DNA of 64,000 nt from an uncultured delta proteobacterium (GTDB taxonomy: Bacteria; Chloroflexota; Dehalococcoidia; Dehalococcoidales; BS750m-G39). The stretch covers positions 633-64,632 of the forward strand of contig CAVTZP010000002.1 in the NCBI GenBank assembly GCA_963739245.1, read 5' to 3'. Each line of letters begins with the position of its first letter. The first letter of the stretch is position 1. The position numbers and the translations under genes were made by a program. The notes beneath the pieces are model-generated. The model was not told where the DNA came from. It made no database searches and worked only from the letters and a program-made list of their open reading frames with translations. Of the stretch, positions 14,029-64,000 are shown in pieces.

Positions 14029-14036
14029 GGAAAAAG

Positions 14037-16204: not shown

Positions 16205-16229
16205 GGGGTTATAATTAAGCGGAGGTAAA

Positions 16230-16622: not shown

Positions 16623-16626
16623 ACAG

Positions 16627-17253: not shown

Positions 17254-17270
17254 GTTGAGGAGGTGGCACC

Positions 17271-22711: not shown

Positions 22712-22730
22712 TTGTCTGAGGAGGGTAGAT

Positions 22731-23216: not shown

Positions 23217-23217
23217 A

Positions 23218-32529: not shown

Positions 32530-32530
32530 G

Positions 32531-34984: not shown

Positions 34985-34989
34985 ACTCT

Positions 34990-35493
34990 CTACCTCCGGG
35001 GCAAATTACTGGCCACTTCCAGCACAGCTAGGGTGTGTCGGGGATATGTGCCGCACCGACACAGATTGCCAACAAGGGCCTCCTCCACCTCTTCTTTTGT
35101 TGGATTGGGATTCTTGTCCAACAAAGCCTTCACCGTAACGATAAAACCCGGCGTACAGTAACCACACTGCATAGAGCTATGCTTGACATAGGCTTCGATA
35201 AGGGGATGGTTGGCTCTGGCAATCCCCTCTATAGTCTCTATGGTTTTGCCATCACACTCTATAGCCAGTGTCATACAGGAGAGGATTGGCCTCCCGTCCA
35301 GAATCACAGCACAAGCACCACAGGCTCCCTCATTGCAAAGCTCTTTAGTTCCGGTCAACCCAAGCTCATTATGAAGCACGTACTGCAGGGTCCAGTTCGA
35401 CTTGACCCTCACTTCATATAAATCCCCGTTCACCGCAAATTTTATTTCTTCCTCGGCTATTGGAACTTTCTTGGCTGGTGGCGACATACCCAA
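34990..35493 (-). CDS. Xanthine dehydrogenase family [2Fe-2S] subunit
   Basis: TGTKELCNEGACGAC...SC, QCGYCTPG, GNLCRCGTY. Confidence 0.95.
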   Translation of the reverse strand: MGMSPPAKKVPIAEEEIKFAVNGDLYEVRVKSNWTLQYVLHNELGLTGTKELCNEGACGACAVILDGRPILSCMTLAIECDGKTIETIEGIARANHPLIEAYVKHSSMQCGYCTPGFIVTVKALLDKNPNPTKEEVEEALVGNLCRCGTYPRHTLAVLEVASNLPRR

Positions 35494-35512
35494 ATATTCT
35501 CCTTTCTGGCGT

Positions 35513-35536
35513 CTAGATATATACTAGATATATAAT
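35513..35536. promoter_or_regulatory. Tandem 11-bp repeat / quasi-palindrome over a -10 box in a divergent promoter region
   Basis: CTAGATATATA at 35513-35523 and 35524-35534; TATAAT at 35531-35536. Confidence 0.5.
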
Positions 35537-35612
35537 GGTATTTCGGTGTATTATAGCACAGGCGGACAAGGAGAAAAGACCTGACAAGAGAATATCTGAG
35601 GGAGTTATAGTT

Positions 35613-36938
35613 ATGAGTTCGGAAAAGTACTGGAATCCAATTCTGGAAACACTACCCCGTGAGAAACTTCAGCAATTGCAGCTAAAGAAGTTTCAGGAAA
35701 TATTCAAGTGGGCTTATGAGCACTCCAAGTTCTATCATAAACTATATAGCGAAGCCGGCATAGAACCTGGCGACATCAGGACGTTTGATGATATACCAAA
35801 GGTGCCCAAGATAGAAAAGGCCATGATGAGAGGCATTCAGGGCAAGGACCCCTTTCCCTACGGGGACATCCTGTGCGTGCCCTTAGAGCAGGTAACGGAA
35901 TACCGCCAGACCAGCGGCACGACGGGACAGCCGGTATATCAGGCTGATACGTGGCAGGACTGGGAGGGCGGCGTTGAAGCCTATTGCTATGCATTATACG
36001 CCCAGGGATATCGCGATAGCGACCGCGTGTTCGTACCCTTTGGCTACAACATATTTATCGCCTTCTGGGTATATCATTATGCGGCGGAGAAACTGGGCTG
36101 TGAGGTAATCCCCGGCGGGGTCTTAAATACCGAGGCGCGAATATTAAAGATGCAGGAGCTAAGAGCCACGGGGATGGGAGCCACGCCAACCTACGTGCTC
36201 GGTATGGCCGAGACCGCCAGAAAAATGGGTATAAACCCGCCCAAGGATTTATTTATCCGGAAAATCACCGTCGCCGGAGAGCCGGGAGGCAGTGTTCCGG
36301 CAACCAGGAAAAGAATGGAGGATGCCTGGGGAGCCAAGGTCTACGACCAGGCAGGCAGCACGGAAATGGGCCACTGGGGCTGGGAATGCCAGTATCAATG
36401 CGGGCTGCATGTCAATGAGGCTTTCTACCTTATGGAGATAGAAGATGTTGATACCGGTGAAATTATCACCGAGCCCGGCAGGAGGGGCAAGATGGTTGTC
36501 ACTACCTTTCACCGTCTGGCTCAGCCATGCATCAGGTTCGATGCTAAGGATATAGTTGAGTGGAGCCCGATAGACAGGTGCGAATGTGGCCGAACCTTCC
36601 ACCTTCTTCGGGGTGGTGTTACGGGACGGGCGGATGACATTACCAAGGTGAAAGGGGTGCTCTTGGCTCCGGCTTCCATTGAGGAGGTGGTCAGAAGCAT
36701 CCCCGAGCTCGGCAACGAGTATGAGGTGACGGTAATTAAAAAGGGCGATATAGACGATATTACATTAAAAGTTGAGTTAATGCCGGGGCAAGAGGGTAAT
36801 GTTGACGCCATCAGGCCTAAGCTGGTTGACCAACTCCGGCTAAAGACCAATTTAGGGTATAACCTGGAGTTTCTTCAGCATGGCGCTTTACCCAGGTATG
36901 ATACTAAGGCAAAAAGGTTTAAGGACCTGAGACATTAA
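35613..36938 (+). CDS. Phenylacetate-CoA ligase (PaaK-like) family acyl/aryl-CoA ligase
   Basis: YWNP.LETLPRE.L, TSGTTGQP, AGEPG, GRADD..KVKGV; ATG 35613 after GAGGGAG. Confidence 0.9.
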   Translation: MSSEKYWNPILETLPREKLQQLQLKKFQEIFKWAYEHSKFYHKLYSEAGIEPGDIRTFDDIPKVPKIEKAMMRGIQGKDPFPYGDILCVPLEQVTEYRQTSGTTGQPVYQADTWQDWEGGVEAYCYALYAQGYRDSDRVFVPFGYNIFIAFWVYHYAAEKLGCEVIPGGVLNTEARILKMQELRATGMGATPTYVLGMAETARKMGINPPKDLFIRKITVAGEPGGSVPATRKRMEDAWGAKVYDQAGSTEMGHWGWECQYQCGLHVNEAFYLMEIEDVDTGEIITEPGRRGKMVVTTFHRLAQPCIRFDAKDIVEWSPIDRCECGRTFHLLRGGVTGRADDITKVKGVLLAPASIEEVVRSIPELGNEYEVTVIKKGDIDDITLKVELMPGQEGNVDAIRPKLVDQLRLKTNLGYNLEFLQHGALPRYDTKAKRFKDLRH

Positions 36939-47190: not shown

Positions 47191-47526
47191 AATGGGCAGG
47201 AATTATTGAGAAAAATATCTGGGGTGAAACAACCATAAAACATGAATGACATTATGCTTAGAAATTGCACATTAGGTAACATTCACTCAGATTGTGCAGT
47301 TCTACCAATTAGATGAACTGCGCAGTGACGCTATACATGCCATCAAACGACTGGTGATACATGCTTAATTAGCTTGAAATCGAATGTTTTGTTGCTCAAG
47401 GTGGGTTAGGAGTGCTTCAGCTCAAAGATTTCTCTCGTTAGATTTATTGTTTCGATTTTCATGTTGCTCCTACCTCCATAAGGTATATTCTACTGAATGC
47501 GTTTGGATAAAGCCAATATTGGGAGT

Positions 47527-47555
47527 TTGACAAGACAGTAGGTAAATGATAATAT
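47527..47555 (+). promoter_or_regulatory. Candidate promoter of mobB-radical SAM-bamB2
   Basis: TTGACA (47527-47532), 17 bp spacer, TAATAT (47550-47555). Confidence 0.65.
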
Positions 47556-47601
47556 TAATATAGCGTAAAATTAACGCAATACTAAATGTGAGATATACTG
47601 A

Positions 47602-48177
47602 ATGATACCAATTATTTCTTTTATTGGCAGTTCCGGTTCAGGTAAGACTACTTTGCTTGAAAAAGTGGTTACCGAGCTTAAAAAACGCGGCATCAGGGTT
47701 GCCGTCATTAAACATTCGCATTATGGCGACCTTGGCTTCGACAAAAACGGTAAGGATAGTCAACGTTATACAACAGCCGGGGCTGAGGTAGTCATTGTTA
47801 GTAGTCCGCAGGAAATAGTCTTCATGAAAAAGACAGATCATGATCTATCACCCGATGAGATTACACGCCTTATTGATCCCGATATTGACCTTGTTCTCAC
47901 CGAAGGTTTTAAAAGTGCTGGTACTTTTAAAATTGAAGTACACCGAAAGGTACTGGAATCAGAGTTGCTGGCAAAGCCAGAGCAGCTTCTGGCGGTGATA
48001 ACTGATGAACCGCTCGATATTCAGGTTCCCCAATTTGATGTAATGAAAAATAATACCGTCGAAATCGCTGATTTAATCGAAAAATGGCTGTCAGGTCAGC
48101 CCAAAAGAGACATTGAACTTGTAATCAATAAAGAATTCGTTGAATTAATAAAGAAAAGCAAGGCACTAAAATTGTGA
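47602..48177 (+). CDS. mobB: Molybdopterin-guanine dinucleotide biosynthesis protein B (copy 1, short C-terminus)
   Basis: G.SGSGKTTLLEK, IKH, GKDS, D..L.EGFK, KIEVHR. Confidence 0.9.
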   Translation: MIPIISFIGSSGSGKTTLLEKVVTELKKRGIRVAVIKHSHYGDLGFDKNGKDSQRYTTAGAEVVIVSSPQEIVFMKKTDHDLSPDEITRLIDPDIDLVLTEGFKSAGTFKIEVHRKVLESELLAKPEQLLAVITDEPLDIQVPQFDVMKNNTVEIADLIEKWLSGQPKRDIELVINKEFVELIKKSKALKL

Positions 48178-48212
48178 GAAGACTAACAGACCATAATAAA
48201 CAATTAAAAAGA

Positions 48213-49337
48213 ATGTATTCTACTAAAGATGGAAGATTGCAGGGAGAAGCTGGTTGGGCGAAACTTGCTTTCTTCTGGTTCATCTTATTTCTATCATACA
48301 AGTGCACAAGAAGGTGTAGCTATTGTTATGCTTTTAATCAAGTTGGTGATGATAATAAGATGGAAATGGATGAGAATACATTTTCAAGGTTATTAGAGTG
48401 GATCCCAGAAGTCTGGAAAGTTAATAACGTTAAAGTGAACGCCATTAGCTTTCTTGGTGGGGAACCATTATTGAGAACGGATAGAATTAAGAAAATTATG
48501 GATTCTGTCTATAAAAATACTGACGGCATGCAGGGAGATGTTTATACAAATGGTGATTTAATAGATTCTGTAAATTGGGATGACCTTGAAGATATCCAAT
48601 GGATGGTAACAAATATTACAGATATTAGTATTGAAGAACTATCGAGAAGAATGAAGATAATCAGCGAAAGGTCAAATGTTAAAGGTCAAACAATAACAGC
48701 TACCTTGGACGATTATAACTTAGAGAGAGTTCTTGATATAACAAGATTCGGAATAGAAAATGGATATCGCTTGAGATACTATAGGAATTTATACCGAGGA
48801 TTGGATACTGAATATAAGAAAATATTATTGAAGAAATATCACGAAGTATGTGATTTATTGGAAAATTATATTATTAAGGGATACGATGTCCAGACTACTT
48901 TCTTGTTTGATACTTTAATTCCTTCCTGGAATCTTGAATCTTCTCCATATCTTTGCGGGAAAAGTATTGCCACAGTATATCCCGATGGAACGGTTGGGCC
49001 ATGTCTTAGAAACCAATCATTTAAAACCGGAACAATATTTGACGCAAATCCTTTAAGTAAAATTCAATGTGACACATTTCTTTATGATTTTAGAAAACCA
49101 GACATCCCGGATGAATGTAGGGAGTGTGAATCTAAAACCGCCTGCCAGGGAGGATGCCCGTTTGATAAGTTGTTGTTGACCGGTACTACATCAGGAAAAT
49201 CTGTTGTATGTGATATACACAAAGAAATTATTCCAAGATTAAGATATTTAGATAAATTAAAAAACGATATGAAAAACCCAGTACATAGAGGTGATAAAAA
49301 TGAGATACGCAGAGACAGGATACAACCTAGAAATTGA
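48213..49337 (+). CDS. Radical SAM protein with SPASM domain
   Basis: CTRRCSYC, GGEPLL, C......PDG.V.PC, CRECESKTACQGGCP...C; start uncertain (48174 GTG or 48213 ATG). Confidence 0.9.
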   Translation: MYSTKDGRLQGEAGWAKLAFFWFILFLSYKCTRRCSYCYAFNQVGDDNKMEMDENTFSRLLEWIPEVWKVNNVKVNAISFLGGEPLLRTDRIKKIMDSVYKNTDGMQGDVYTNGDLIDSVNWDDLEDIQWMVTNITDISIEELSRRMKIISERSNVKGQTITATLDDYNLERVLDITRFGIENGYRLRYYRNLYRGLDTEYKKILLKKYHEVCDLLENYIIKGYDVQTTFLFDTLIPSWNLESSPYLCGKSIATVYPDGTVGPCLRNQSFKTGTIFDANPLSKIQCDTFLYDFRKPDIPDECRECESKTACQGGCPFDKLLLTGTTSGKSVVCDIHKEIIPRLRYLDKLKNDMKNPVHRGDKNEIRRDRIQPRN

Positions 49338-51288
49338 CCTATCCCGAGGAACCATTGAGAGGGTAGCAACTGACCCGAAATTAACCGAACTTCACCTTGG
49401 CGGGTTAGGTACCAGCGTCAAGATGCACTGGGATAGGGTTCCCCCTGAAACTAAACCATTTGATGCCGAGAATCTGCTAATATTCAGCGCCGGTCTTTTA
49501 TGCGGCACACCAGCTTTCAGCTGCAATCGTACCGTTGTTACCTTCGTTTCTCCTCAGTCGGAGTTATTAGCATATCCAATGATGGGGGGATTCTGGGCAC
49601 CAGAACTGAAATTTGCCGGTTATGACAAAGTGGTCATTCAGGGCAAGTCCCCCAAGTGGGTTTATTTGTGGATAAACGATGACAAGGTAGAAATCCGTGA
49701 TGCCTCTCATTTAAAGGGCAAAGGCGCTCTTGAAACTGTAGAGCTTATTCGACAGGAGCTGAATGAGCCGAAAGCCCAGGTGGCAGCTATTGGCCTGGCC
49801 GGTGAAAATCGGGTCTTCACGGCTTCCATCGAGCAGGGCAGGTCCAGCGCCAGCCGACTCGGAGGAGGCGCCGTTATGGGGGACAAAAAATTAAAGGCGA
49901 TAGCTGTTCGTGGAACAAAAGACGTCAATCTTGCCCGAGGGGCTGAATTCATGGAGCATATGAATGCTGTGCTGGAATATATAAAGTTCCGAAATGCAAA
50001 TCCCATTCCAAACGTAATGACCATTTTATCCGGGATTGGGTCGCCACAGGAGATGAAAAACACTGATGAGAAGTGGCACACTGAAAGTTTCATGTGGGGA
50101 AATGCCCGTGTTCGGAGAAGAGACTTCTGGACCAAGGAACACGAAGAGGAATGGACGACGACTCAATTAAGTGCGATAAAGCGGCTAATAAGTTGCTATA
50201 ACTGTCCGCAGCAATGCGGAGCATTAATTTCCTACAAGGATGTTCCAAATTACATGGCGAAATGCTTCGGGAAACTTACCTATTCAATGGCGGCCCAGGT
50301 AGACAGGCTGGATTTTAACTTTAGAATCCTTCAGCGTGCTACGGAGTATGGAGTGGACTCATTCTCAACCCCGCAAATTTTGGCCTTCGGTGTCGAGCTC
50401 TATGAAGCCGGCATTCTAACTGACCAGGACATGCCAGGATTTCCGTCCGATAACGAGGGGAGATTTTTCTGGTTGCTTGACCGGGTTGCCCGGCGGGAAG
50501 GAATTGGAGATATTCTGGCCGACGGCACTTATTGGGCGGCCAAAAAGATTGGCAAGGGCGCAGAAGTATTTGCTCATAATATCATCAAGAAACACGAGCA
50601 GCTTCCTCTCAAGCTGGGAACGCTGGATCCCCTTTATTTCCTTATGTATTCTACCAACGAGAAGATAAGCATTACCCAAATTGAAGGGAATTGGCCCCAG
50701 GCGGCTTTCCCGACGAGGGAGGAGAGAGAAGAGTTTGTAAAGGATTGGCCCCAGCTTCCTGATGAAAAGTTTAAGCAATATTTACTGGACTGGGAACCAC
50801 GGGGAGATCACGGGATACCATATTTCCCAACTCCTGAAATGTGCTGCGAAATTGTGGATTGGATGGAGACGCTGCACAACATTGATGACGCCATCGGATT
50901 GTGCGCCGGTATGGGATCATTTTGCTTAAAGCCTCCCTATCATATACACAATTACCCGAAAATAATCTCGGCGGCGACTGGGATGGATATAGATGAAGCC
51001 GGACTAAAGAAAATAGTCAGGAGGAGCCGTAATTTACACAGAGCATTTAATGTAAAAAGAGGCATGAGGAGAGCTGATGAGAAGCCGCCTGAAGACCATT
51101 GGAAAAAAAGATATCCCGAGCTCGAAGAAAAACTCCTAGATACGTATTACAAATTCAAGGGATGGAATAATGACGGTATTCCTACTAAAGAAACTTTACG
51201 GGAATTAGATTTGGGTTATGTTGCGGAAGACTTAGAACAGAGAGGGATACTAAAAAACGGCCAATCCGACCACCCCGACCATAAATAG
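49300..51288 (+). CDS. bamB: Tungsten aldehyde-oxidoreductase family, class II benzoyl-CoA reductase catalytic subunit BamB paralog
   Basis: MRYAETGY.LE.DL, MMGGFWAPELK, SIEQGRSSASR, SPQEMK..DEKWHTE, SCYNCP..C, KCF, KKHEQLPLKL; E251, H260 and C322 fall at the residue numbers I recall for Geobacter BamB. Confidence 0.9.
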   Translation: MRYAETGYNLEIDLSRGTIERVATDPKLTELHLGGLGTSVKMHWDRVPPETKPFDAENLLIFSAGLLCGTPAFSCNRTVVTFVSPQSELLAYPMMGGFWAPELKFAGYDKVVIQGKSPKWVYLWINDDKVEIRDASHLKGKGALETVELIRQELNEPKAQVAAIGLAGENRVFTASIEQGRSSASRLGGGAVMGDKKLKAIAVRGTKDVNLARGAEFMEHMNAVLEYIKFRNANPIPNVMTILSGIGSPQEMKNTDEKWHTESFMWGNARVRRRDFWTKEHEEEWTTTQLSAIKRLISCYNCPQQCGALISYKDVPNYMAKCFGKLTYSMAAQVDRLDFNFRILQRATEYGVDSFSTPQILAFGVELYEAGILTDQDMPGFPSDNEGRFFWLLDRVARREGIGDILADGTYWAAKKIGKGAEVFAHNIIKKHEQLPLKLGTLDPLYFLMYSTNEKISITQIEGNWPQAAFPTREEREEFVKDWPQLPDEKFKQYLLDWEPRGDHGIPYFPTPEMCCEIVDWMETLHNIDDAIGLCAGMGSFCLKPPYHIHNYPKIISAATGMDIDEAGLKKIVRRSRNLHRAFNVKRGMRRADEKPPEDHWKKRYPELEEKLLDTYYKFKGWNNDGIPTKETLRELDLGYVAEDLEQRGILKNGQSDHPDHK

Positions 51289-51365
51289 GAGAAGCAGGCT
51301 CTAGACAACCTGAACCGGGCGGGCTCCCCGAAAAGCCATGGTTCAGCAAGCATCGAAGGCTTCGA

Positions 51366-52013
51366 TTATGAGGATTTCTTCTTCAGGAAAATCTGGACGC
51401 TTGTAATCTCTTTTACCCCCTTGAGAGATGAGGCGATAGCGGTAACGATATTGCTAATAATCTCTCTGGGGAAGATACTCAGGGATATAGGGGCGTTGTT
51501 TACACAAAGTATGACGCGTTCACTTTGTGGTTTGATAAAACCTTGCTCCAAAAGGTCGGCTAAGCCTTTAATATCATCAAGGGGGAACTGCCTGGTCTTG
51601 GTTTCCACAGGTTCGTCGGTGACTATGGCGCAAAGCTTCTTAACAGAAGCAAAGGGTGGGCCGGCTTCCTTGCGGTGAACCTCTATTTCGGGCGCATCGC
51701 CCTCTTTGAAGCCTTCACTCAGGATGATGTCATAATCCTCGCCAAGGAAGCGGGCTATCTCCTCAAGGCTAGTATCTGGGGCAATAGGTTTGATTAACAT
51801 AATCTTATCTGAGCCACTAATAATGGTAGCCTCGCTTCCAGCCTGGATGTGGCGCCAGCTATCCTTACCCGGCTCGCCAAGGGTCAGGTTTTGGCGGGTG
51901 TGCTTAATGGTAGCCACCCGATAGCCCCTTGATTTTAGCTCCTGAACCAGCTTCTCAATAAGGGTCGTTTTTCCTGATTTTGTTTTACCTATAATTGAAA
52001 CGATGGGAGGCAT
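51366..52013 (-). CDS. mobB: Molybdopterin-guanine dinucleotide biosynthesis protein B (copy 2, C-terminal extension)
   Basis: GKTKSGKTTLIEKL, TIKH, GKDSWRH..AG, EGFK, IEVHR. Confidence 0.9.
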   Translation of the reverse strand: MPPIVSIIGKTKSGKTTLIEKLVQELKSRGYRVATIKHTRQNLTLGEPGKDSWRHIQAGSEATIISGSDKIMLIKPIAPDTSLEEIARFLGEDYDIILSEGFKEGDAPEIEVHRKEAGPPFASVKKLCAIVTDEPVETKTRQFPLDDIKGLADLLEQGFIKPQSERVILCVNNAPISLSIFPREIISNIVTAIASSLKGVKEITSVQIFLKKKSS

Positions 52014-52238
52014 TGTTTATCGCTTTCGTGTTGAGTTAACGGTATGAAACCAGGGAGTTATGATAACACACTGCCAATATGCTGTCAAAGAATTGGATAC
52101 CTCTAGCCTTTTGGTATACATTTCGGTTATAATTATAGGCAACGTTTTCGGTTAAATTCGGAACCCAACCATTGAAAATCGGCATTCGATATTTGATGCC
52201 TAGAATTTAGATTCATCTGGATTAAGGGGGAATAAATA

Positions 52239-54272
52239 ATGCAGGGTACAGTCTACTTTTATTTGCTGTTCTGGGGAGTATTTATCGTGTCCTTGGGAGT
52301 ATTCATGTATCGTACCAGACAGCTATGGCAATATATGTTCCTGGGACAGAAAGAAAGCACGGCGGGCAGGCTAAGGCAGATCGTTAATACTCTAGTCTAT
52401 GTTTTCAGTCAACTTTGTCAGCTCAAAAACTTCCGCTCTAAAGACCGGGCACCTTTAGGTCATGCCTTGCTGGTATGGGGTTTCTTTGTTTCCGTACTCT
52501 TTTATTTCTTCTTTATTATACTCTCGGAAGGTCTTGGTCTAGTTGGTTTACAGGATACACAGTTCTATTTCTATTTCACCTGGATAATGGACTTCATGGC
52601 TGCCTTCATCTTCATCGGCGCGGCGTGGGCTCTCATCAGGCGGTATATCATCAGACCGGCCCGCCTTAAAGGAGAGCAGACCTGGGAGGCATTTATCATC
52701 CTCCTTTCTGTATTGGCCCATCCCGTCACCCATGTTTTTGAAGTCGGAACGAAGATTGCCCTGGGGGATGCGCCCGCGGGGCTGGGACACACCTTATTGC
52801 CACCGATTAGCGCCTGGATCAGTAACTTGTTTGTGGGAAATCCTGGCCTGGATGGATGGCATATCGGTTTCTTCTGGGCACACTGGCTCACTGTGGTCCT
52901 GGTGTTGATCCTCATTCCTTATACAAGATACATACATATTATAGCCTCCGTCTTCAATGGAATTCTGCGTAACCCCCAGCGTATGGGTACGTTGAAATCA
53001 ATTGACCTTGAAAACGCAGAGTCTTTCGGGGCAGCAAAAATCGATAGTCTTAGCTGGAAGCAAAACCTGGACTTATATTCCTGCGTGGTCTGCGGCAATT
53101 GCCAGGAGTTGTGCCCGGCTTACGCCACCGGCAAACCACTTAACCCCAAGAAGGTGATTCAAGACCTGAAAAAACAACTCTTAAAGGTTGGGCCGGTAAT
53201 ATTAAAAGCGAGGGCAAAAGGTGGAGAGGTACCGGCAGACATTAATGTCACTCTGGCAGGGAATATCGTTACCGAAGATGAGATATGGGCATGCACCACC
53301 TGTGGCGCCTGCGATAATGTTTGTCCGGTCTGGGTAGACCACATCGATAAGCTGGTAGACCTCAGGCGTAACCTCATTCTCGAACAATCTGCTATGCCAG
53401 ATACCGCTAAGGTAGCCCTTGAAAGTATTGAGAAACGGGGTCATCCCTGGCGCGGGACTACTATGACCCGTACCGATTGGACACAGGGACTTAATATCAA
53501 GACTATGTCTGAAAATGCCAATGTGGACATTCTCTTCTGGGTCGGTTGTACGGAAGCCCTGGAAGATAGGAGTCTCAGGATATCTCAAGCGTTCGCCAGG
53601 GTAATGCAGCAAGCAGGAATTAATTTTGGTATTCTCGGTACAGAAGAAAGTTGCTGCGGCGACCCGGCGCGCCGCTTAGGCAATGAATACCTCTTCCAGA
53701 TGCAGGCACAGAAAAATATCGAGGTCTTAAAGGGTTATAACGTTAAGAAGATAGTTGCCGCCTGCCCGCACTGTTATAACACCCTGAAGAATGAGTATCC
53801 CCAGTTCGGCGGCAACTTCGAGGTCATTCACCATACCGAATTCATTGGTAACCTTATTAAAGAAGGTAAGCTACAAATTAATAAAGGTGGCTACGGGAAA
53901 ATCACCTATCACGATTCCTGCTACTTAGGACGGCATAACGAGATTTACCAGCCTCCCCGGCAAGTACTGAAATCTCTACCTGACATCAAGCTGGTCGAAA
54001 TGGAGAATAATAAAAAACGTGGCTTTTGCTGCGGGGGTGGCGGCGGCCAGATGTGGATGGAAGAGCGCATTGGTACCCGTATATCCGAAAACCGGATGGA
54101 CCAGATAATTGCCACCAGAGCTGACATGGTAGCCACCGCCTGTCCTTACTGCCTACAGATGTTCGATGATGCCATCAAAGCCAAACAGGTTGAGGAAAAG
54201 CTGAAGGTAAAGGATATCGCCGAGATTATTGCCGAATCAGCTCAGACGAAGAGAAAATGTGCCTTCCTCTGA
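52239..54272 (+). CDS. Membrane-bound heterodisulfide-reductase-like (HdrE/D, FadF-type) Fe-S oxidoreductase
   Basis: N-terminal TM helices with His; CVVCGNCQELCP, CTTCGACDNVCP; two CCG domains (SCCGD, FCCGGGG). Confidence 0.88.
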   Translation: MQGTVYFYLLFWGVFIVSLGVFMYRTRQLWQYMFLGQKESTAGRLRQIVNTLVYVFSQLCQLKNFRSKDRAPLGHALLVWGFFVSVLFYFFFIILSEGLGLVGLQDTQFYFYFTWIMDFMAAFIFIGAAWALIRRYIIRPARLKGEQTWEAFIILLSVLAHPVTHVFEVGTKIALGDAPAGLGHTLLPPISAWISNLFVGNPGLDGWHIGFFWAHWLTVVLVLILIPYTRYIHIIASVFNGILRNPQRMGTLKSIDLENAESFGAAKIDSLSWKQNLDLYSCVVCGNCQELCPAYATGKPLNPKKVIQDLKKQLLKVGPVILKARAKGGEVPADINVTLAGNIVTEDEIWACTTCGACDNVCPVWVDHIDKLVDLRRNLILEQSAMPDTAKVALESIEKRGHPWRGTTMTRTDWTQGLNIKTMSENANVDILFWVGCTEALEDRSLRISQAFARVMQQAGINFGILGTEESCCGDPARRLGNEYLFQMQAQKNIEVLKGYNVKKIVAACPHCYNTLKNEYPQFGGNFEVIHHTEFIGNLIKEGKLQINKGGYGKITYHDSCYLGRHNEIYQPPRQVLKSLPDIKLVEMENNKKRGFCCGGGGGQMWMEERIGTRISENRMDQIIATRADMVATACPYCLQMFDDAIKAKQVEEKLKVKDIAEIIAESAQTKRKCAFL

Positions 54273-54875
54273 CTCAGCTTCGAAAGAAGGTGAGGAAGAC
54301 TTTAGAGCTTCAATAAGGACGTAGGCGGCTTGCAGTGCCTCTGTAGGGCAAAGCGGAAAACATTCTTTGCAGTTCCAGCATTCCTTGGAGGCTATCTCCG
54401 GAATGAAACTTATCTCTCGCCTTGTTCCTCTGTCGACAAAGCCGATAGCGTTCTTCTTCTTGACCTCAGCACAGTATCTAACACATAGACCACAAAGAAT
54501 GCAAAATGAGTGCTCTTTTTCAAAATGGGCTTTATTTGCTCCATACTCTTGAGCCAAATCCTGCAATACCCCGGCTTCTGGAGCATGAGCTAGCACCAGC
54601 TCCAAAAGCATTTTGCGAATTTTATCTACCTTCTCCGACCTGGTTCTTACCACCAAATTTTCTTCAACGGGGTAAAGACAGGCAGCAACGAGATTTGTCC
54701 TACCGCGAGTCTCTACTTCTACTGTGCAAATTCGGCAGGCCCCATAAGGTTCTAATTTCTCGTGGTGGCAAAGTGTAGGAATAGATATCCCCGCACTTTG
54801 GGCTGCCTCCAAAATGGTCATCCCTTCCCTGGCTTTAACTTCTCTTCCATCAATCTGTAAAATGATTTCACTCAT
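54237..54875 (-). CDS. bamI: BamI / NuoG N-terminal-like Fe-S subunit
   Basis: IPTLCHH..L.P.GACR.C.VE, CILCGLCVRYC, CWNCKECFPLCPT; position after bamH. Confidence 0.82.
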   Translation of the reverse strand: MSEIILQIDGREVKAREGMTILEAAQSAGISIPTLCHHEKLEPYGACRICTVEVETRGRTNLVAACLYPVEENLVVRTRSEKVDKIRKMLLELVLAHAPEAGVLQDLAQEYGANKAHFEKEHSFCILCGLCVRYCAEVKKKNAIGFVDRGTRREISFIPEIASKECWNCKECFPLCPTEALQAAYVLIEALKSSSPSFEAESEEGTFSLRLS

Positions 54876-56800
54876 CTTTCTTTACTCTCTCTGGCTATAA
54901 CCCTTGCTTCTTCAGGTATGGGAGACGGAACAGGCTCGCCAGAAATCTTCTTCACCGCACCAAAACGAGGGGGGCAAACTTCAAAACAAGTTCCGCACTT
55001 TGTGCATTTCTCCTGGTCGATTACATGGATCTGTTTCTTGTCACCTACAATCGCCCCGGCAGGGCATTGCCTAAGGCAAATCATACAGGCCTGGCACTTC
55101 TTTGGGTCGATATAGTACGAGATTAGCTCCTTGCAGAAATAAGCTGGGCACCTCTTCTCCTTGATGTGTGCCTCATACTCGTCCCTGAAGTAGCGTATCG
55201 TGCTTAGAACCGGGTTAGGGGCAGACCTGCCTAAAGCGCAAAGCGAGGCATCTCTTGTTACCTCGGCTAGCTCCTCCAAAAGCTCGATGTCGCCCTCTCT
55301 TCCCTTTCCTTTGGTGATATTAGATAGAATCTTAAGCATCTGCCTGATGCCTTCACGGCAGGGGACACATTTGCCACACGATTCATCACTGAGGAAGTTA
55401 AGGAAGTACCTGGCGACATCAACCATACAGGTATCTTCATCCATTACAATCATCCCACCTGAACCCATCATTGAGCCAACCTTGGTGAGTTCATCGAAAT
55501 CAACTTTCATATCCAGCTGTTCCGCGGGGATGCATCCTCCGGATGGACCCCCGGTCTGCACTGCTTTGAACTTCTTACCTGTGGGGATGCCACCACCTAT
55601 ATTAAAAATAATCTCTCTTAAAGTAGTGCCCATGGGTACTTCAACTAAGCCAGTATTATTGACTTTGCCCACGAGGGAGAACACCTTTGTGCCTTTGCTT
55701 CCTGCGGTGCCGAGACCGGCAAACCAATCAACGCCCTTGTTGATTATCTGAGGGACAAAAGCCCATGTCTCAACATTATTCAAGTTGCTGGGTCTATCCC
55801 AAATGCCCTTAATGGCGGTGTGGATATACTTCGGTCTGGGCTCTCCTACCCTGCCTTCTATTGCCGTCATCAGAGCACTCGATTCACCAGAGACGAAAGC
55901 ACCGGCTCCTTGGTGTACTTTAACAGTGAAATCAAAGCCTGAGCCAAGGATATTTTTGCCCAGGAGACCATACTCCTCAGCCTGCTTGATAGCGATGGTC
56001 ACATTCTCTACTGCTAAGGGGTATTCCTGTCGAACGTAAATATAGCCCTCGTGAGAACCAATGGCATAGGCTCCGATGATCAACCCCTCAAGAACCATGT
56101 GAGGGTTCCCCTCAAGTTCAGCTCTATTCATATAAGCTCCGGGGTCTCCCTCGTCGGCATTGACGATCACATACTTTATCTCACCGGGGGCATTGCGACA
56201 TTCCTCCCACTTTCTCCCTGCGGGAAATCCACCGCCTCCCCTCCCTCTCAGGTTAGATTTTTTCACTTCCTCCAATACTTGCTCGGGGGTCATCTGGGAA
56301 AGAACTTTGGCCAAGGCAGAATAACCACCGAGCGCCAGATAGTCATCGATGTTCTTAGGGTCAATTCTTCCGTTGGAACCCAAAACAAGCCGCTCCTGGT
56401 TCTTGTAGAAGGGAATTTCAGATTCATGAATTATCTTTTCATTGGTGTTGGGGTCGGTATAGAGTAAACGCTCTATGACCTTCTTCTCCTTTATGGTCTG
56501 GGAGACAATTTCGGGAACATCCTTAGGCTCTATCTGTAAGTAACATATTTCCTCAGGGTGAATAACTATGATAGGGCCCCTCTCACAAAAACCATGGCAA
56601 CCAGTCCTTCTAAAGTCTACCTCGGCGCTTAATCCTTGTTTTTTAATCTCCTCTTCAATACTCGCCGCAATTTCGCCGCTACCGGAAGCGTGGCAAGCAG
56701 TTCCGGAACAGAGTGTAATACAAGGCTTATTCGGGTCTCTTTTGGACAGGATTCCCTTCCTGAGTTCTTCCAATTCAGCGGGTGATTTTATCCGCGCCAT
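54872..56800 (-). CDS. bamH: BamH / NuoF-like NADH-binding FMN subunit with 2x[4Fe-4S] tail
   Basis: LRGRGGGGFP.G.KW, NADEGDPGA, G.GGPSGG, ESCGKC.PCREG, CALG, C..C..C...CP twice. Confidence 0.88.
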   Translation of the reverse strand: MARIKSPAELEELRKGILSKRDPNKPCITLCSGTACHASGSGEIAASIEEEIKKQGLSAEVDFRRTGCHGFCERGPIIVIHPEEICYLQIEPKDVPEIVSQTIKEKKVIERLLYTDPNTNEKIIHESEIPFYKNQERLVLGSNGRIDPKNIDDYLALGGYSALAKVLSQMTPEQVLEEVKKSNLRGRGGGGFPAGRKWEECRNAPGEIKYVIVNADEGDPGAYMNRAELEGNPHMVLEGLIIGAYAIGSHEGYIYVRQEYPLAVENVTIAIKQAEEYGLLGKNILGSGFDFTVKVHQGAGAFVSGESSALMTAIEGRVGEPRPKYIHTAIKGIWDRPSNLNNVETWAFVPQIINKGVDWFAGLGTAGSKGTKVFSLVGKVNNTGLVEVPMGTTLREIIFNIGGGIPTGKKFKAVQTGGPSGGCIPAEQLDMKVDFDELTKVGSMMGSGGMIVMDEDTCMVDVARYFLNFLSDESCGKCVPCREGIRQMLKILSNITKGKGREGDIELLEELAEVTRDASLCALGRSAPNPVLSTIRYFRDEYEAHIKEKRCPAYFCKELISYYIDPKKCQACMICLRQCPAGAIVGDKKQIHVIDQEKCTKCGTCFEVCPPRFGAVKKISGEPVPSPIPEEARVIARESKER

Positions 56801-56809
56801 AATTTTCCC

Positions 56810-57262
56810 CTAATCATAGTTTTTTAACACGTCTCCTGTCTTGGCTGGTACCATCTTACCGTGATACTTCCCATCAACTTCCATCACCGGTCCTAAAGCA
56901 CAGCAGCCGAGACAGTTAACAGTCTCCAGGCTAAACTTTAAATCCGAGTCCGTTTCGCCAGGTCTAATTCCAATCAGGTCTTGAACCGTGTCAAGGACTC
57001 GCGGCGCACCACGAACATGACAGGCAGTACCCATACAAATATGAATTTCATGACGTCCTTTAGGAACTAAACTAAAGGCTTTATAAAATGTAGCTATATG
57101 CTGTATCCGGCTTAAAGGCACTTGTAATTTCTTACTGACCTTCTCTAATACTTCCTTGGGAAGCCAGCGATTTTCGCTCTGAATCTCCAGTAATATTTGA
57201 ATTAGCGAATCGGCTTTGCCCTGATGTTTATCAATAATCTGCTCGATTTTACCCTCATCCAT
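56810..57262 (-). CDS. bamG: BamG / NuoE-like [2Fe-2S] subunit
   Basis: ATFY..F, C.GTACHVRG, V.CLGCC..GP. Confidence 0.88.
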   Translation of the reverse strand: MDEGKIEQIIDKHQGKADSLIQILLEIQSENRWLPKEVLEKVSKKLQVPLSRIQHIATFYKAFSLVPKGRHEIHICMGTACHVRGAPRVLDTVQDLIGIRPGETDSDLKFSLETVNCLGCCALGPVMEVDGKYHGKMVPAKTGDVLKNYD

Positions 57263-57291
57263 AGCTGCTGTCCTAACCCTCTTCTTTCACT

Positions 57292-58059
57292 TTAAGCGGG
57301 AACAAAACGCTTCTGGCTTTCGTCAAACCTGATTAATCCTTGCCTTGCTGAACTATTAAGGTGTCTTGATACTTCAGACGGATTTAAGCCTAAAATCTCA
57401 GAAATTTCTCCAGTGGAAAGGGGCCTTTCTCGCAGGAGTAACATAATTTGGCTTATTGCCAATTTATCTACAATTAATTCATGAAATAACCTATCTAACT
57501 CCTCACTGGTGAAAAATTTCTTATATTCTTCGTCTGTAGCAAAATGCACTCTCAGCCTCTCCCTTTCCACCAGCTTAATGTAGGGGACTAAATTTTTAAC
57601 TGCTTCAAGTTTTAACTTTAATCCCTTTTCATCTATTCCTTCGCCTTTTCCCAGAGGTCCTAATTCCTTCAGCTTCTTGGTAAAGTCAGTAATAACTTCG
57701 GCGAAACGGATTCCTTCAGAGGCAGATACCCATTCCAGCCTTAGCCTTTCGGGGTTCACCCCTATCTGTCCCAGTAATTTTTTAGTTAGATGCATCATGC
57801 TTAATGCATCGTAATTTCCCTCCGTGATGTAATGGCATTCGCCAAGCCAACAACCGCCGATAAACACCCCGTCTGTTCCGTTTGAGAAAGCCCGGAGTAT
57901 AAATGCCGGGTCAACTCTACCGGAGCACATCACCCTTATCACCCTTATATTAGTGGGGTATTGATACCGGGAAACTCCGGCAAGGTCTGCCCCTGCGTAG
58001 CAACACCAATTACATAAAAACCCTAACATCCTTGGTTCAAAATCGTAGCTCGCAACCAT
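57292..58059 (-). CDS. bamF: BamF / MvhD-like subunit with C-terminal winged HTH
   Basis: FLCNWCCYAGAD.AG, CSGRVDP, GC..GECHY..GN, W.SASEG; C-terminal PLSTGEISEILG..PSEVSRHL. Confidence 0.85.
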   Translation of the reverse strand: MVASYDFEPRMLGFLCNWCCYAGADLAGVSRYQYPTNIRVIRVMCSGRVDPAFILRAFSNGTDGVFIGGCWLGECHYITEGNYDALSMMHLTKKLLGQIGVNPERLRLEWVSASEGIRFAEVITDFTKKLKELGPLGKGEGIDEKGLKLKLEAVKNLVPYIKLVERERLRVHFATDEEYKKFFTSEELDRLFHELIVDKLAISQIMLLLRERPLSTGEISEILGLNPSEVSRHLNSSARQGLIRFDESQKRFVPA

Positions 58060-58093
58060 GTCTTAGCTCACTCCTAAGGTAATCCCTCTTTGT

Positions 58094-61000
58094 TCATACA
58101 AGGGCTTGAACCTTCGCCAGGTCTGGAACCGCCGCGTCAATTTGGCGAAAGATCTCTTCATCAGTAAAGTGCTTCAGAGAAATAGCCCCTGTCGGACACT
58201 TCGAATTACAGAGACCGTCTCCCTTACAGAGGACAGGAATAACCCTGGCCTTTTTGCCTTGTGGTGTATCATAAAACTCTATAGCACCATACTTACAAAC
58301 CGAAATACAAGCCCCACACGCTATACACTTACTCTCATTTACCTCGCAAATAGCACCAGAGGCGGTGACTGAATCCTTGGAAAGAATGGTTGCCGCCCGG
58401 CCGGCAGCTCCGTAAGCCTGGCTAATCGCTTCCGATATATGCTTGGGGTAGTGAGCCATCCCGCACAGGAAAACGCCATCGGCAGCAAAATCAACCGGCC
58501 GTAATTTTACATGGGCTTCCTGGAAGAAACCATCCGGGTTCAAAGGTACCTTGAATAACCGGGATATTTCAGTATTCGTTGCCGAAGGAATAACGGCGGC
58601 AGCTAAAGCGAGTAAATCGGCATCTATAGCAATTTTCTTACCTAAAATCGGATCGGTCACGGTAACCCTTAGAATACGCTGACCACCCTCTTCGATAGCT
58701 TCCACCTCGGGTTTATCATCCGGCTCATAGCGGATGAACTTCACTTCCCGCTCCGCCGCTTCCCGGTAATAATCCTCTTTAAACCCATAAGTTCTCATAT
58801 CCCGATAGATAATGTAGATATCCATCTCGGGGTTTTTCTCTTTTAGTTTCAAGGCGTTCTTTATAGAATGACTGCAACATACCCGGCTGCAATAATTTCT
58901 GTCTTTTTGTCGGCAACCTACACATTGAATCATCACCAGGCTCTTGGCGTTAACCACCCTCGGTTCCCCTTTGGCGATTTGCTCCTCTAACTCCACCAGG
59001 GTCAATACCCTGTCATCTTTCCCATAAAGGTACTCGGTAGGTTTATATTCTTCAGCACCGGTAGCGATGACGGCTATTCCATGGTGTATCTCCCTGACCC
59101 TTCCTCCAGACGTTACCTTGGTTATGAAATTCCCCACATAACCGGAAGCCTCGGTGATGGTAGAATCAGTAGATACTTGTGAATTAAGGGGTGCTGGTAA
59201 ACCTTGCGGATAATATCACTCAGATATGCTTGAACATCCATCCCTTCCAGGGTGTAATGAATTCTTCGAGCCATTGGGATGCTGGTTAACTCGGCGTATG
59301 ACTTCGGCCAGGTATGTTTGTACATCCATGCCTTCCAGGGTGTAATGAAGCTCTTCGCGCCATTCCCCCCAACTCTGTATCCTTTTCCACCAGGTAAACC
59401 TCAAATCCCTGGTTGGCTAAGCTCAGAGCACTGGTCATCCCGGCCACGCCTCCGCCGACTACTAACGCCCTTTTGTCGACCGGCAGGTCAAATTCCTGTA
59501 AAGGCTGTAAAAGAGCGGCTCGGGCTACCGACATCCGGACTATATCCTTTGCCTTTTGGGTGGCAGCTTCCTTTTCTCGAGAGTGGACCCAGGAGCAATG
59601 TTCCCTTATATTGGCAAATTCAAAGTAATATTGATTAATTCCCCCCTCGCGAAGCGTATCCCGGAATAACGGCTCATGTGTCCTGGGGGTACAGGCGGCG
59701 ACAACCACGCGATTGAGTCCCTTTTCTTTGATTGCGTCTGCTATCCGTTGGGCAGCATCAGTAGAACACGAAAAGAGGTCTTCTTGAGCGTGGACAACAT
59801 TGTCTAGGGTCAAAGCATATTCAACTACCGAAGGAACATCCACCACTCTTCCGATATTAGCTCCACAATGACAGACAAAGACCCCCACCCTTGGTTCCTC
59901 ACCTCGAGACATCCCTTTCCGGTGGATATACCCTTTCTCTGGCCAGCTTCCCTCGCCGGTGGGCAAGGAGTTGACTGCAAAGGGCATCAGCCCCGCTGGC
60001 GGTCATAACCGACTCGGGGATATCTATAGGACCCTGGAAGGCTCCGCTGACAAAAATTCCCGGGCGGGAGGTCTCAATAGGAGTAGCAGGATTGGTTTTG
60101 CAGAATCTGGTGAGCGTTAAGTTCGATGCCGAACTTATCAGCCAATTCTTCCACATCATCAGGAGGGTTCAACCCGACGGATAATACCACCAGGTCGAAT
60201 TCCTCTTCCTTTACTCCGTCATCGGTAGTAGAGTATTTTATGGTTACATTCTTGCTTTCTGGCAGCTCTTTCCCTATTGATACGTAGCTTCTTATAAATC
60301 GAACGCCGGGAAGGTTCTCCGTTCTTTGATAGAATCGCTCGAAGTCCTTGCCAAATGACCGAATATCATTATGGAATATAGTAGCCTCAATCTCACTGTC
60401 ATGGTCTTTTGCCAGAATCACCTGCTTCTGGGTGTAGGTGCAGCATACGGCTGAACAATAGCTGTTGCCGCCCGGGATAACCTGTCTGGAACCGACGCAC
60501 TGAATCCAGGCTATCTTCTTCGGATGCTTCCCGTCAGAAGGGCGCCTTATCTCACCTTCGTAAGGCCCGGTGGAACATAATATCCGTTCAAAGTCAAGGC
60601 TGGTTACTACATTCCTGAACTTTCCGTAGCCATAGTCGCCCCTCAGCTTGGGGTCAAATGTCTCATAGCCCGGAGACAGAATTATCGCCCCTACCTCTAC
60701 TTCTACCTTCTCCTCCTTTTGATGAAGGTCTATAGCGTTATTCTTGCAGACTCCTACGCAAATGTTACATTTTCCGTCTTTAAGGAAAAGGCAGGTTTCA
60801 GGGTCTATATAAGTGACAAGCGGAACTGCTTGAGAAAAGTATATATGGCTGCATTTACTAAAAGATAAGTTTTGATTATATTTATTGGGGACCTTAACCG
60901 GGCAGTACTCAGTACAGGTAGTACAACCCCGGCATTTGTCATCTGATAATGTATCTGGGCTTTTTAATCAGGGTTACCTTGAAGTCTCCTGCTTCCCCTT

Positions 61001-61298
61001 CTACCCTGTCAACTTCAGTATAGGTCAGGATTTCTATATTGGGATGCCGGCTGCATTCAATAAACTTGGGAGATTCAATGCACATGGAGCAGTCATTGGT
61101 GGGGAAGGTCTTATCAAGCTGGGCCATCTTGCCGCCGATAGCCGGTGATTTGTCAACCAAGTAAACCTTAAAACCCATATCGGCCAGATCAAGGGAGGCT
61201 TGGATACCGCTGATCCCTCCACCGACAACCATAACATCGCCAATATTACTTTCTGCGGGACTATTAACTAATTGTCCTTCAACTGGTTCTTTTTCCAC
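58094..61298 (-). pseudogene. bamE: BamE / HdrA-like flavoprotein, broken by about six indels and an internal duplication (pseudogene or sequence error)
   Basis: Fragments join into HdrA: [23 protein letters not shown]...YCS.VCC, GVFVCHCG.NI, AACTPRTHE, GGGVAG, QCVGCR, FFQEAHVKLRP; frame changes near 60944, 60108, 59904, 59351, 59275 and 59177. Confidence 0.85.
59188..59363 (-). repeat. Diverged tandem duplication of a 29-codon segment inside bamE
   Basis: Copy 1 at 59275-59363 and copy 2 at 59188-59274 both encode MARRxHYTLEGMDVQxYLxxxIRxVxQHP. Confidence 0.9.
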
Positions 61299-61331
61299 TT
61301 TTCTCCGTCCTTATCAGGATTCTTCGCTTCC

Positions 61332-62475
61332 CTAAATCACTTCCTGGATAATTTCTGTGATGTCTTTAATCTCTATGACTTCACTATTCTCCAGGGTTAA
61401 CCTGCTATCCTCAAAATTGATGATGCAATATGGGCAGGAAGTAACCAGCACCTCAGCCCCGACCTCAATAGCTTGTTCTAATCTGAGGTCGGAGAATCTT
61501 TCACCCTTTGGAGTGTCCATCCAAATCCTGCCTCCTCCCCCTCCGCAACAGAGACTATCTTCCCGCGAATCAGCCATCTCAATCAGTTCTAAACCAGGTA
61601 CCTTCTTTAAGACCTCTCGGGGTTCGTCATATATGCCATTATGCCGACCCAGGTAACATGGGTCATGATAAGTAACTTTCTTCCCATACTCCTTGGTGAG
61701 CTCAAGCCTTCCCTCATTAATAAGCTCGAATAAATATTGGGAGATATGAACCACCTCAAAGTTGACCTTAAATTCGGGATACTCGTTTTTGAAGGTGTGG
61801 TAGCAATGAGGGGAAGAAACAAGGATTTTCTTCACCCCATTATCGATAAAAGTTTTGATGTTTTCCCTGGCTAAGCGTTTGAATAATTCCTCATCGCCCG
61901 CCTTGCGGATGCTTTCTCCACAGCAATTCTCCTTGGGACCCAGTATCCCAAAATCTACCCCTGCCCTGTTAAGGATATTGGCTGTGGCAGTAGCTACCTT
62001 TTTTAATCTTGGGTCATAGCTGAGGTAGCAGCCGGGGAAATATAAAATTTCCGTCCCCTCGGTGAACGTTTTTACAGACAGACCTTCTGCCCAATCTGCC
62101 CTCTTTGCTCGTTCTTCACCCAAGGGGTTACCTTCAGCACCGAGGCTTGCACTTACGGTGTGGATTGGAGCCGGAGAAATCCCTGCTTCCGAGGCAATCC
62201 TGCGGAAGGATAGCACTAACGTCTATCGTTCCTACTCCCCTGGGGCACCGCTGAGGGCATCTTCCGCAGGTAGTACAACGCCATATATCTTCACCTTCTA
62301 TCTCAGGCAAACCGAACGTAGCCTGTCGGACTATGTTGCGCATACTGAAGTTTCTAACCCTGTTCCACGGACAAACAGTATCACACAATCCGCATTGATA
62401 GCAGAATTTGAAGGCTTCTCCACCAGCCTCTTTTATGGCATCTATTGCCTCTTTGAAGGGGGCTACAATCTCCAC
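61332..62475 (-). pseudogene. bamD: BamD / HdrCD-like protein with one frameshift near 62216
   Basis: CYQCGLCDTVCPW and CTTCGRCPQRCP in 62134-62475; CCG motifs (NCCGE, SPHC, YHDPCYLGRHN, LCCGGGGG) in 61332-62216. Confidence 0.85.
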
Positions 62476-62508
62476 TATCTTTTAATCCTCTTCTTTCGCC
62501 TTAATGTT

Positions 62509-63033
62509 TTAGCCCTTTGCTAATCGGGTAACGGTATCCATTACCTTCTTCACTCCATGTTTTTTTACTAATGATTCTAATCCTATCTCCATCTCCTCCC
62601 GCTTCTCTTCTTCTTCCCCTTCCTCTTCCCTTTCTTCGTAAGTCAGGGCATCATTTAAGCACCACTGAACACACATCGGCTCTTGTAGTGGCGGTTCTTC
62701 TTCACACATATCACATTTTAGAGGGAGATCGGAATCAGGGTCTTTGAAAAGCTTCCGGGATGGGCAGGAAGCCCGGCAGAAGCCACACTCGTCATATTCC
62801 TTTCCGTCAATCGTATAAATGTCTCTGCCATTACATTCGGCTTCAGTATACTCACCGGCAATTACCGGAACATAAATATCTTTTAGTGGCTCAAAAAGCA
62901 CCCGAATCCGAGACCTCTCCGGATTAGTGCTGCTATATTTTGGCGCAGCGTGAAAGGCGGAGCAGATTACCTCACATGCCCGGCAACCATTGCATTTATC
63001 AACATCGATCTTGATTACTTTAACTTTTTTCAT
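62509..63033 (-). CDS. bamC: BamC electron-transfer Fe-S subunit
   Basis: IDVDKCNGCRACEVICSAFH, RSRIRV, ECGFCRASCPSR, LPLKCDMCE..P...EP.CV.WC; in frame with the bamB C-terminus. Confidence 0.87.
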   Translation of the reverse strand: MKKVKVIKIDVDKCNGCRACEVICSAFHAAPKYSSTNPERSRIRVLFEPLKDIYVPVIAGEYTEAECNGRDIYTIDGKEYDECGFCRASCPSRKLFKDPDSDLPLKCDMCEEEPPLQEPMCVQWCLNDALTYEEREEEGEEEEKREEMEIGLESLVKKHGVKKVMDTVTRLAKG

Positions 63034-64000
63034 TTCTTTATAAATCCCTCTTTGTTCTAAGTCTTCGCTAACGTAATCCAAACCTAATTCGTGCAAGGTC
63101 TCTTTAGTAGGAATACCTTCATTATTCCATCCCTTAAATTTATAATACTCGTCAAGCAGCTTAGCTTCAAACTCAGGGAATCTCTTCTTCCAATGGTCCT
63201 CAGGAGGCTGCTCGTCCTTTCTCCTTAAGCCTCTTCTTACATTAATGGCTCTAATTAAAGTTCGGTTCCTTTTAGCTATTTTCCATAGTCCAGCTTCATC
63301 AATATCCATCCCGGTCGCAAATGAGATTAAACGTCGGTAAATTGTGTATATGATACGGAGGCTTCAGGGGAAATGATGACAAACCGGCGCAGATCCCGGT
63401 GGCGTCATCAATGTAATGCATCGTCTCTTGCCATTCAACAAGTTCACAAGTTGCTTGAATAGATGGGTAATATGGAAATGAGGTGCCTGGTTCCCCCCAG
63501 TTCAAGATAAATTCCTTAAACTTTTCCTTAGGAACCTGGACCCAATCCTTTACAAACTCTTCTCTCTCCTCTCTGGTAGCAAAAGGCGCCTGGGGTAACT
63601 GCCCTTCAATTTGGGTAATGTTGATTTTCTCACCTGTGGACCACATGAGAAATAAATAGGGTTCAGCATCCCTAGTTTGATAGGGATCTGCTCATGTTTC
63701 TTAATAGTATTATGGTCGTAGGCCTCAGCCCCCTTGCCAATCTGACGGGCCGCCCAATAAACACCATTGGCCAAAACATCTCCAATCCCTTCTCGCCGAA
63801 CAATTTTGTCAAGCAACCAGAAGAATCTCTCCTCGTTATCGGACGGAAATCCTGGCAGGTCCTGGTCAGTCAAAATGCCAGCTTCATAAAGCTCAAGGGC
63901 GAAGGCCATAACTTGCGGGGTTGTGTATCCGTCCACTCCATACTCCTGAGCAAGACCAGCGATTTTAAAACCAAAATCCAGGTCTGACATGGCCGCCATT
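63034..64000 (-). pseudogene. bamB: BamB C-terminal part (5' end outside the window), two frameshifts, no stop before bamC
   Basis: EYGVDG...PQVMAFA.EL, KKHEQ.P.KL, GEKINITQIEGQ, MHYIDDA.G.CAGLSSFPLKPPYHIHN, HWKKRFPE; indels near 63650 and 63327. Confidence 0.87.

Follow-up and report, generated by a model that had tools for sequence, protein, structure and literature searches.

The 64,000-nucleotide stretch of contig CAVTZP010000002.1 analyzed here (the window; assembly GCA_963739245.1, from the Dehalococcoidales) contains a full-length, intact bamB gene that begins at ATG 49300. Judged by its sequence, the 662-residue product is a fully canonical BamB, for which bamB is the fitting annotation, and it is predicted with reasonable confidence to be a functional catalytic subunit of the ATP-independent, tungsten-dependent class II benzoyl-CoA reductase. 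The four-residue Zn site Glu251/His255/Glu257/His260 is incomplete in this protein, with Thr-255 in place of the histidine and Asn-254 preceding it. Comparison across the family indicates that a four-residue Zn site with His255 is no true defining feature of BamB, because His255 is missing from 52 of the 129 loops found in an even sample of genomes and from the consensus of the clade, type A, to which the window gene is assigned.

In substrate-free BamB of Geobacter, a Zn2+ ion is bound 11.5 Å from the W by the "invariant" residues Glu251, His255, Glu257, and His260. The ion is expelled when substrate binds, after which His260 and Glu251 supply protons. Cys322 ligates the W, a ligand found in BamB and YdhV and absent from other AORs (PMC12096430). 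The window loop reads SPQEMKNTDEKWH and its Geobacter counterpart SPQEMKVHDEKWH; residues 254 and 255 are Val-His in Geobacter and Asn-Thr in the window BamB, which therefore has only three of the four Zn ligands reported. A first-pass annotation of this DNA had placed E251, T255, E257, H260, and C322 (in a KCF motif) by counting from ATG 49300, and both the translation and the gapless alignment to the Geobacter structure described below bear this out, as they do its statement that the catalytic residues are kept. It was correct that position 255 is a Zn ligand, that C322 binds W, and that H260 is a proton donor (PMC12096430); it omitted His260 as a further Zn ligand, and it overlooked Asn254, where most close relatives have His.

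The start codon is preceded by an AGGTGA ribosome-binding site, and the product begins with MRYAETG, as do its homologues. A phmmer comparison with Geobacter metallireducens BamB (PDB 4z3w_A) scores 1046 bits and is gapless from residue 1 to about residue 335, so that residue numbering corresponds one to one between the two proteins. The product contains the Pfam domains AFOR_N and AFOR_C (E-values 4e-68 and 4e-65), as expected of the three-domain fold of the AOR family. Its AlphaFold2 model, built from a 66-row alignment (predicted local distance difference test score, pLDDT, 90.2; predicted template modeling score 0.92), matches 4z3w_A with a template modeling (TM) score of 0.96, a root-mean-square deviation of 1.7 Å, and 67% identity, and the next structural matches are AORs at TM 0.78 or lower. 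The Pyrococcus furiosus AOR (1AOR) has the same fold as the window BamB (TM 0.78) and likewise a bis-pyranopterin W and a [4Fe-4S] cluster, whereas AORs are only 27% identical to it and have neither Cys322 as a W ligand nor the E251...H260 loop.

Each residue expected of a BamB catalytic center is present. C322, within KCF (321-323), is the W ligand and is kept in 275 of 275 collected sequences; H260 and E251 occupy the proton-donor positions; and the four [4Fe-4S] cysteines C299, C302, C306, and C535 are all found, the first, second, and fourth being invariant in the BamB alignment and C306 at least 90% conserved. An alignment of 272 BamB sequences has 286 columns with conservation of 95% or more; the window protein deviates at 0 of them and the median sequence at 3. 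The Geobacter enzyme (Gmet_2087; PDB 4Z3W-4Z40), catalytic subunit of Bam[(BC)2DEFGHI]2, resembles the window BamB in length and domains and shares with it C322, H260, E251, E257, D256, W259, and the FeS cysteines.

The even sample comprises 401 genomes spread across the phylum of Desulfonema magnum, which were searched with a DNA pattern for P-Q-E-M-x-x-x-D-E-x-W-H, the codons being tallied by hand. The pattern matches 129 loops in 113 of these genomes. His255 is present in 77 loops, His254 without His255 in 30 (22 of them H-T), and neither histidine in 22; residue 255 is not His in 40%. Among the 120 closest homologues of the window BamB (79-98% identity), about 109 have H254-T255 and 115 have T255, and Asn254 (as NT, NY, or NF) is confined to the query and six further sequences. 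Across the 275 collected sequences, residue 255 is Thr in 201, Val in 36, and His in 21, and residue 254 is His in 225, within a loop that keeps D256, E257, and W259 in 272 sequences each, H260 in 273 (the remainder being gaps), and E251 in 255. Glu251, the proposed proton donor and Zn ligand (PMC12096430), is replaced by Met, Ala, or Ser in one type A subclade, and bamC still follows these genes (L040, L042, L044, L048, L050, L051, L061, L067, L081, L149, L152, and others). A representative search at 50% identity merged the entire BamB family into one representative and was thus of no use for surveying the loop.

The first-pass annotation took Thr255 for a special alteration of this copy. That view does not survive the comparison, in which T255 is the clade consensus (201/275) and 255 is frequently some residue other than His. 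Common variability of position 255 in active BamB was the annotation's own ground for dropping its reading, and such variability is seen here, with activity of the variants deduced from gene context and from the genome of one isolate. Variation extends to the 120 nearest relatives of bamB2, the second bamB gene of the window: of the 119 that could be scored, 26 carry F, Y, D, or V at residue 255.

In a tree of 182 sequences, the base is a grade of x-His255 forms (LH, VH, IH, and TH at residues 254-255), followed by His-less forms (LV, LI, IV) and then by His254-Val. The type A clade, with the consensus loop E251-M-x-H254-T255-D-E257-x-W-H260, lies beyond a long branch of 0.21 with support of 100, and the N254 group (support 96) is nested within it beside genes of related Dehalococcoidia. 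On this tree a His at 254 or 255 is gained or lost at least 12 times, and 29 of the 182 rows have none. Because T255 is the consensus of the type A clade that holds the window bamB, Thr255 reads as an inherited clade state and not as a private loss. The particular feature of the window gene is, by the same comparison, N254, which is shared with its six nearest database relatives and leaves the loop with no His at 254 or 255. Other assemblies contain members of this lineage at 82-98% identity; for the N254 relatives (P0002-P0005, P0048, P0058), a metagenome scan gave no match closer than 85%.

In the AlphaFold2 model, residues 249-254 form a short helix, residues 255-257 a loop, and residues 258-263 a second helix. 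Residue 254 is located at i+3 from Glu251 and so faces the same side of the helix; in proteins that carry it, His254 could plausibly stand in as a Zn ligand. For the window BamB, with Asn254, one would expect at most a three-ligand site of E251, E257, and H260 plus water or the Asn side chain. A compensating ligand at C381 was also considered, as H254 and C381 co-occur and the N254 lineage is also C381F; an independent-pairs test found only 4 independent contrasts (p about 1), and the coupling is unsupported.

Gene context suggests that BamB forms lacking His255 are real reductases. Of the 82 type A loci that could be evaluated, 78 have bamC, which encodes a three-cluster ferredoxin, directly downstream of bamB, as do all 47 type B loci. 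Complete bamBCDEF(GHI) clusters begin with a type A gene at many loci (e.g., L007, L013, L027, L045, L111, and L129) and with a His-less gene at L175 (E-T, then bamC-I), L155 and L164 (L-V), and L171 (E-V). The complete 8-Mb genome of Desulfonema magnum 4be13 contains a single BamB match, which is of the H254-T255 type, and Desulfonema is listed with the genera in which a BamBC pathway accompanies the degradation of aromatics (PMC11887813). With type A as the only BamB of D. magnum, type A probably handles benzoyl-CoA itself. The fourth Zn ligand would be dispensable or replaceable. Such H254-T255 cluster heads occur in D. magnum 4be13 (CP061800, L031), Desulfobulbus sp. Tol-SR (L039), and Dehalococcoidia metagenome-assembled genomes (MAGs; L017, L018, G021, G028). 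They belong to the same clade as the window BamB, are 78-84% identical to it, and have T255 in common with it, but they carry H254 and have bamC, usually with bamD-F, directly downstream, whereas the window gene has Asn254 and its bamC-I are encoded apart.

Type A and type B BamB differ at 17 near-fixed positions: A40V, S55D, G74S, M90L, S93P, P214G, L246I, M304Q, N443D, G453N, N457S, F465W, V486L, Q522M, Y527N, L538M, and P542C. The window BamB has the type A residue at 17 of 17, unlike Geobacter BamB, and these positions together with the tree assign it to the type A clade. Homologues of the radical SAM/SPASM gene that precedes the window bamB are found within 3 kb of bamB at 18 of the 52 type A loci and at none of the 19 type B loci; loci with this gene beside bamB include L004, L010, L018, L024, L084, L086, L111, and others. 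The window protein gives weak, below-cut-off NCBIfam matches to peptide-maturase models.

A functional difference between the two types is possible. In its strongest form, type A, and especially the N254/T255 sublineage, would be a substrate-specialized paralogue with a differently gated or shaped pocket that reduces another, substituted aryl-CoA than type B BamB2 does. The first-pass annotation raised this idea for the window gene; we consider it unlikely. The discriminating positions do include M304Q beside the FeS cysteines and L538M and P542C beside C535, and the radical SAM/SPASM gene accompanies type A only, yet the reported ring-contacting residues (H260 and E251) are unchanged in the window BamB, residues 254 and 255 vary inside both types, and the sole BamB of D. 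magnum is of type A. Genomes often carry one gene of each type (8 VH plus HT pairs in the even sample, plus the window genome), which would suit a division of labor by substrate, as would the two BamB paralogues of Desulfococcus multivorans, BamB1 and BamB2, whose abundance differs with substrate (PMC5109826). G. metallireducens likewise has a BamB paralogue, Gmet_1802, with 66% identity to Gmet_2087 (PMC1924859). These two organisms resemble the window genome in having two BamB proteins of about 64-66% identity, both linked to aromatic growth (PMC1924859, PMC5109826), and differ from it in that their paralogues each keep their own bamC.

The window bamB is the last gene of a mobB-radical SAM/SPASM-bamB operon (Table 1), a further difference from Geobacter; an upstream mobB and radical SAM gene also occurs in Dehalococcoidia type A relatives. 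The next gene is a convergent mobB and not bamC; the genome has bamC genes on the opposite strand, at a distance of about 11 kb, and on another contig, C3. The first-pass description of bamB as an orphan therefore holds as far as no bamC stands beside it, and is overstated in that C3 carries a bamB-less bamC-I operon with the same promoter.

Table 1. Features of the bamB region, in window coordinates.
Feature	Position	Strand	Remarks
Promoter/leader of the mobB-radical SAM-bamB operon	47473..47601	+	TTGACA-17-TAATAT at 47527-47555
mobB-like P-loop protein	47602..48177	+	Pfam MobB, NCBIfam TIGR00176
Radical SAM/SPASM protein	48174..49337	+	3' end overlaps bamB start by 38 nt
bamB	49300..51288	+	Type A clade, N254/T255 sublineage (assigned by sequence); 662 aa
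Zn loop E251-M-K-N254-T255-D-E257-K-W-H260	50050..50079	+	Geobacter: E-M-K-V-H255-D-E-K-W-H
E251 codon	50050-50052	+	
N254 codon	50059-50061	+	
T255 codon	50062-50064	+	
H260 codon	50077-50079	+	
Cys322 codon	50263..50265	+	Protein ligand of W
Second mobB-like gene, convergent	51366..52013	-	First gene of the 11.7-kb block duplicated on contig C3
Membrane HdrD/DsrMK-like protein	52239..54272	+	NarI-like domain, 4Fe-4S, two CCG domains
bamI, H, G, F, E, D, C of the "main" cluster	54237..63033	-	
bamB2, 3' part	63034..64000	-	Type B, A-I-H255; continues to 64986 (window scale), past the window end

Contig C3 contains, at 7702-19308, a 94-95% identical copy of the 11.7-kb block mobB/hdrD-like/bamI-C (C3:7702-20273, locus L192 of G000, was compared with window 51358-63065 and 47473-47601). 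In this copy, bamE (1058 aa), bamD (389 aa), and bamC (179 aa) are each a single open frame, and its sole defect is one extra base (+1) at about C3 12060 that splits bamH. The block is headed by a PaaX-family (paaX-like) regulator in place of bamB, and about 30 nt of the former bamB 3' end still stand before bamC. The 129 nt upstream of this paaX-bamCDEFGHI operon are 97-98% identical to the promoter/leader before the window mobB, and only these two copies exist in the genome. Because they share this promoter/leader, the C3 operon would be the best candidate partner of the window bamB, and the two are probably under the same control.

The main cluster of the window is interrupted in bamE, bamD, and bamB2 (58097-63653), where relatives have single open reading frames (ORFs). 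With intact relatives and the 95%-identical C3 copy as reference, bamB2 shifts by -1 near 63653 and by +1 near 63333, and a +1 divides bamD into two parts. In bamE there are four insertions of +1, one of +2, and a tandem segment of 88 nt; the gene passes through five reading frames in turn, changing frame four times, and is listed as four ORF pieces. Two extra nucleotides at about 63035 fuse bamB2 in frame with bamC. A 65-nt deletion had been proposed as the origin of this fusion; the comparison with C3 shows that the tail length is natural variation and that the fusion comes from the 2 extra nucleotides.

These interruptions may mean that the main cluster is truly pseudogenized, in which case type A BamB would be the only working catalytic subunit, served by bamC-G and bamI of C3 and bamH of the window contig after complementary decay of the two copies. 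This reading is a serious possibility but the less probable one. At least seven frame-breaking indels fall within about 5 kb of the window copy, while bamE, bamD, and bamC are open on C3 and bamH is broken only there, and the other window genes are whole. The genome-wide share of sequence in ORFs of at least 150 aa is also normal, a metric that is too coarse for the bam indels and shows only that the assembly is not generally error-ridden. Nearly all of the changes, on the other hand, are insertions of one or two bases that fall outside homopolymers and between perfectly conserved flanks, the 88-nt tandem has halves that share only 69% identity, no nonsense substitutions are seen in the interrupted bam genes, and their pieces remain 85-95% identical to the intact proteins of relatives. 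Merging of alleles or cross-mapping of reads in a repeat of 95% identity would account for this pattern better than natural mutation, which is biased toward deletions, and this makes a consensus artefact in a near-identical or strain-variable repeat the likelier cause, by a fair margin over real decay.

A more drastic proposal is that the window bamB is itself a remnant, a non-functional leftover of a decaying accessory island that has lost its bamC-F partners. The absence of an adjacent bamC is rare among type A loci (4 of 82), three same-genus genomes show neither bamB nor bamE, and the neighboring bamB2, bamD, and bamE are interrupted. The gene is nevertheless full length and free of deviations at the conserved columns, its N254 lineage persists elsewhere, it has its own ribosome-binding site and operon, its promoter is duplicated before an intact bamC-G block, and the nearby interruptions look like artefacts. 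A remnant is thus highly improbable.

The main explanation, which we hold with reasonable confidence, is that the window BamB works as the catalytic subunit of a benzoyl-CoA reductase. Any closure of its active site in the absence of substrate would fall to E251, E257, and H260, with water or the side chain of Asn254. The ring would be reduced by the Geobacter route, with a hydrogen atom from W-bound water and protons via H260 and E251, and low-potential electrons would come from BamC-I encoded elsewhere in the genome, for which the C3 operon is the best candidate. A bolder reading, which we consider less likely than not, is that BamB occurs in three Zn-loop states (His255, His254, and no His), that the Zn2+ plug is not universal, and that the N254/T255 lineage has a three-ligand site or works without Zn. 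On this reading, the window BamB would serve, in a streamlined Dehalococcoidia genome, as catalytic head of a split regulon under PaaX control in which mobB-radical SAM-bamB and paaX-bamCDEFGHI are expressed from copies of one promoter.

Several points weigh against the main explanation. The BamC proteins of the window genome are 86-91% identical to BamC of type B clusters and 66-69% identical to BamC of type A clusters, and compatibility of a type B-kind BamC-I with a type A BamB is assumed. The case for non-His255 forms as reductases draws on gene context and the gene content of one isolate. The collected alignments are skewed to relatives of the two window bamB genes, the even sample covers a single phylum, and the tree was built with FastTree only and rooted on 40%-identical AOR-like proteins. 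The structural model is less confident in the loop at 241-260 (pLDDT about 68-73), as might be expected if this loop is mobile.

The genome spans 1.35 Mb in 9 contigs, is 94% complete, and belongs to a family of small genomes. Relatives in this family carry either radical SAM-bamB(type A)-C-D-E-F or bamB(type B)-C-D-E-F-hdrD, and the HdrD/DsrMK-like protein of the window is 73-74% identical to its counterpart beside the relatives' type A bam clusters. In the type B clusters of relatives L100-L102 and L107 (G013, G014, G015, and G009), bamB-C-D-E-F is followed by the membrane HdrD-like gene without bamGHI, whereas the window genome's cluster includes bamGHI and has the HdrD-like gene divergent. 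Another Dehalococcoidales MAG (L024:2220-4922) has a radical SAM-bamB pair with an R-H-T loop and without bamC; an FmdE-like gene and one for a 4HBT thioesterase come next, and an integrase is encoded close by. The window also contains two operons for molybdoenzymes of the xanthine dehydrogenase family (21839-25575 and 30172-36938), one large subunit of which reaches 662 bits with the 4-hydroxybenzoyl-CoA reductase alpha model, short of its cut-off of 995, and a PaaK-like aryl-CoA ligase; it looks like an aromatic-acid island.

The general lesson, that the His255 Zn ligand is not invariant among BamB sequences, is modest in reach, and little changes for the window gene itself beyond its annotation as bamB. 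The residue that the literature calls invariant, and on which the gating model of Zn2+ expelled upon substrate binding is based, is His in only about 60% of even-sample loops; the His is shifted by one position in about a quarter and missing in the rest. This advises caution in generalizing the Geobacter mechanism and in using the loop as a bamB signature in metagenomes. Type A and type B BamB provide a concrete enzyme pair for biochemical comparison, and the type A-only radical SAM gene and the split operons sharing a promoter offer further handles.

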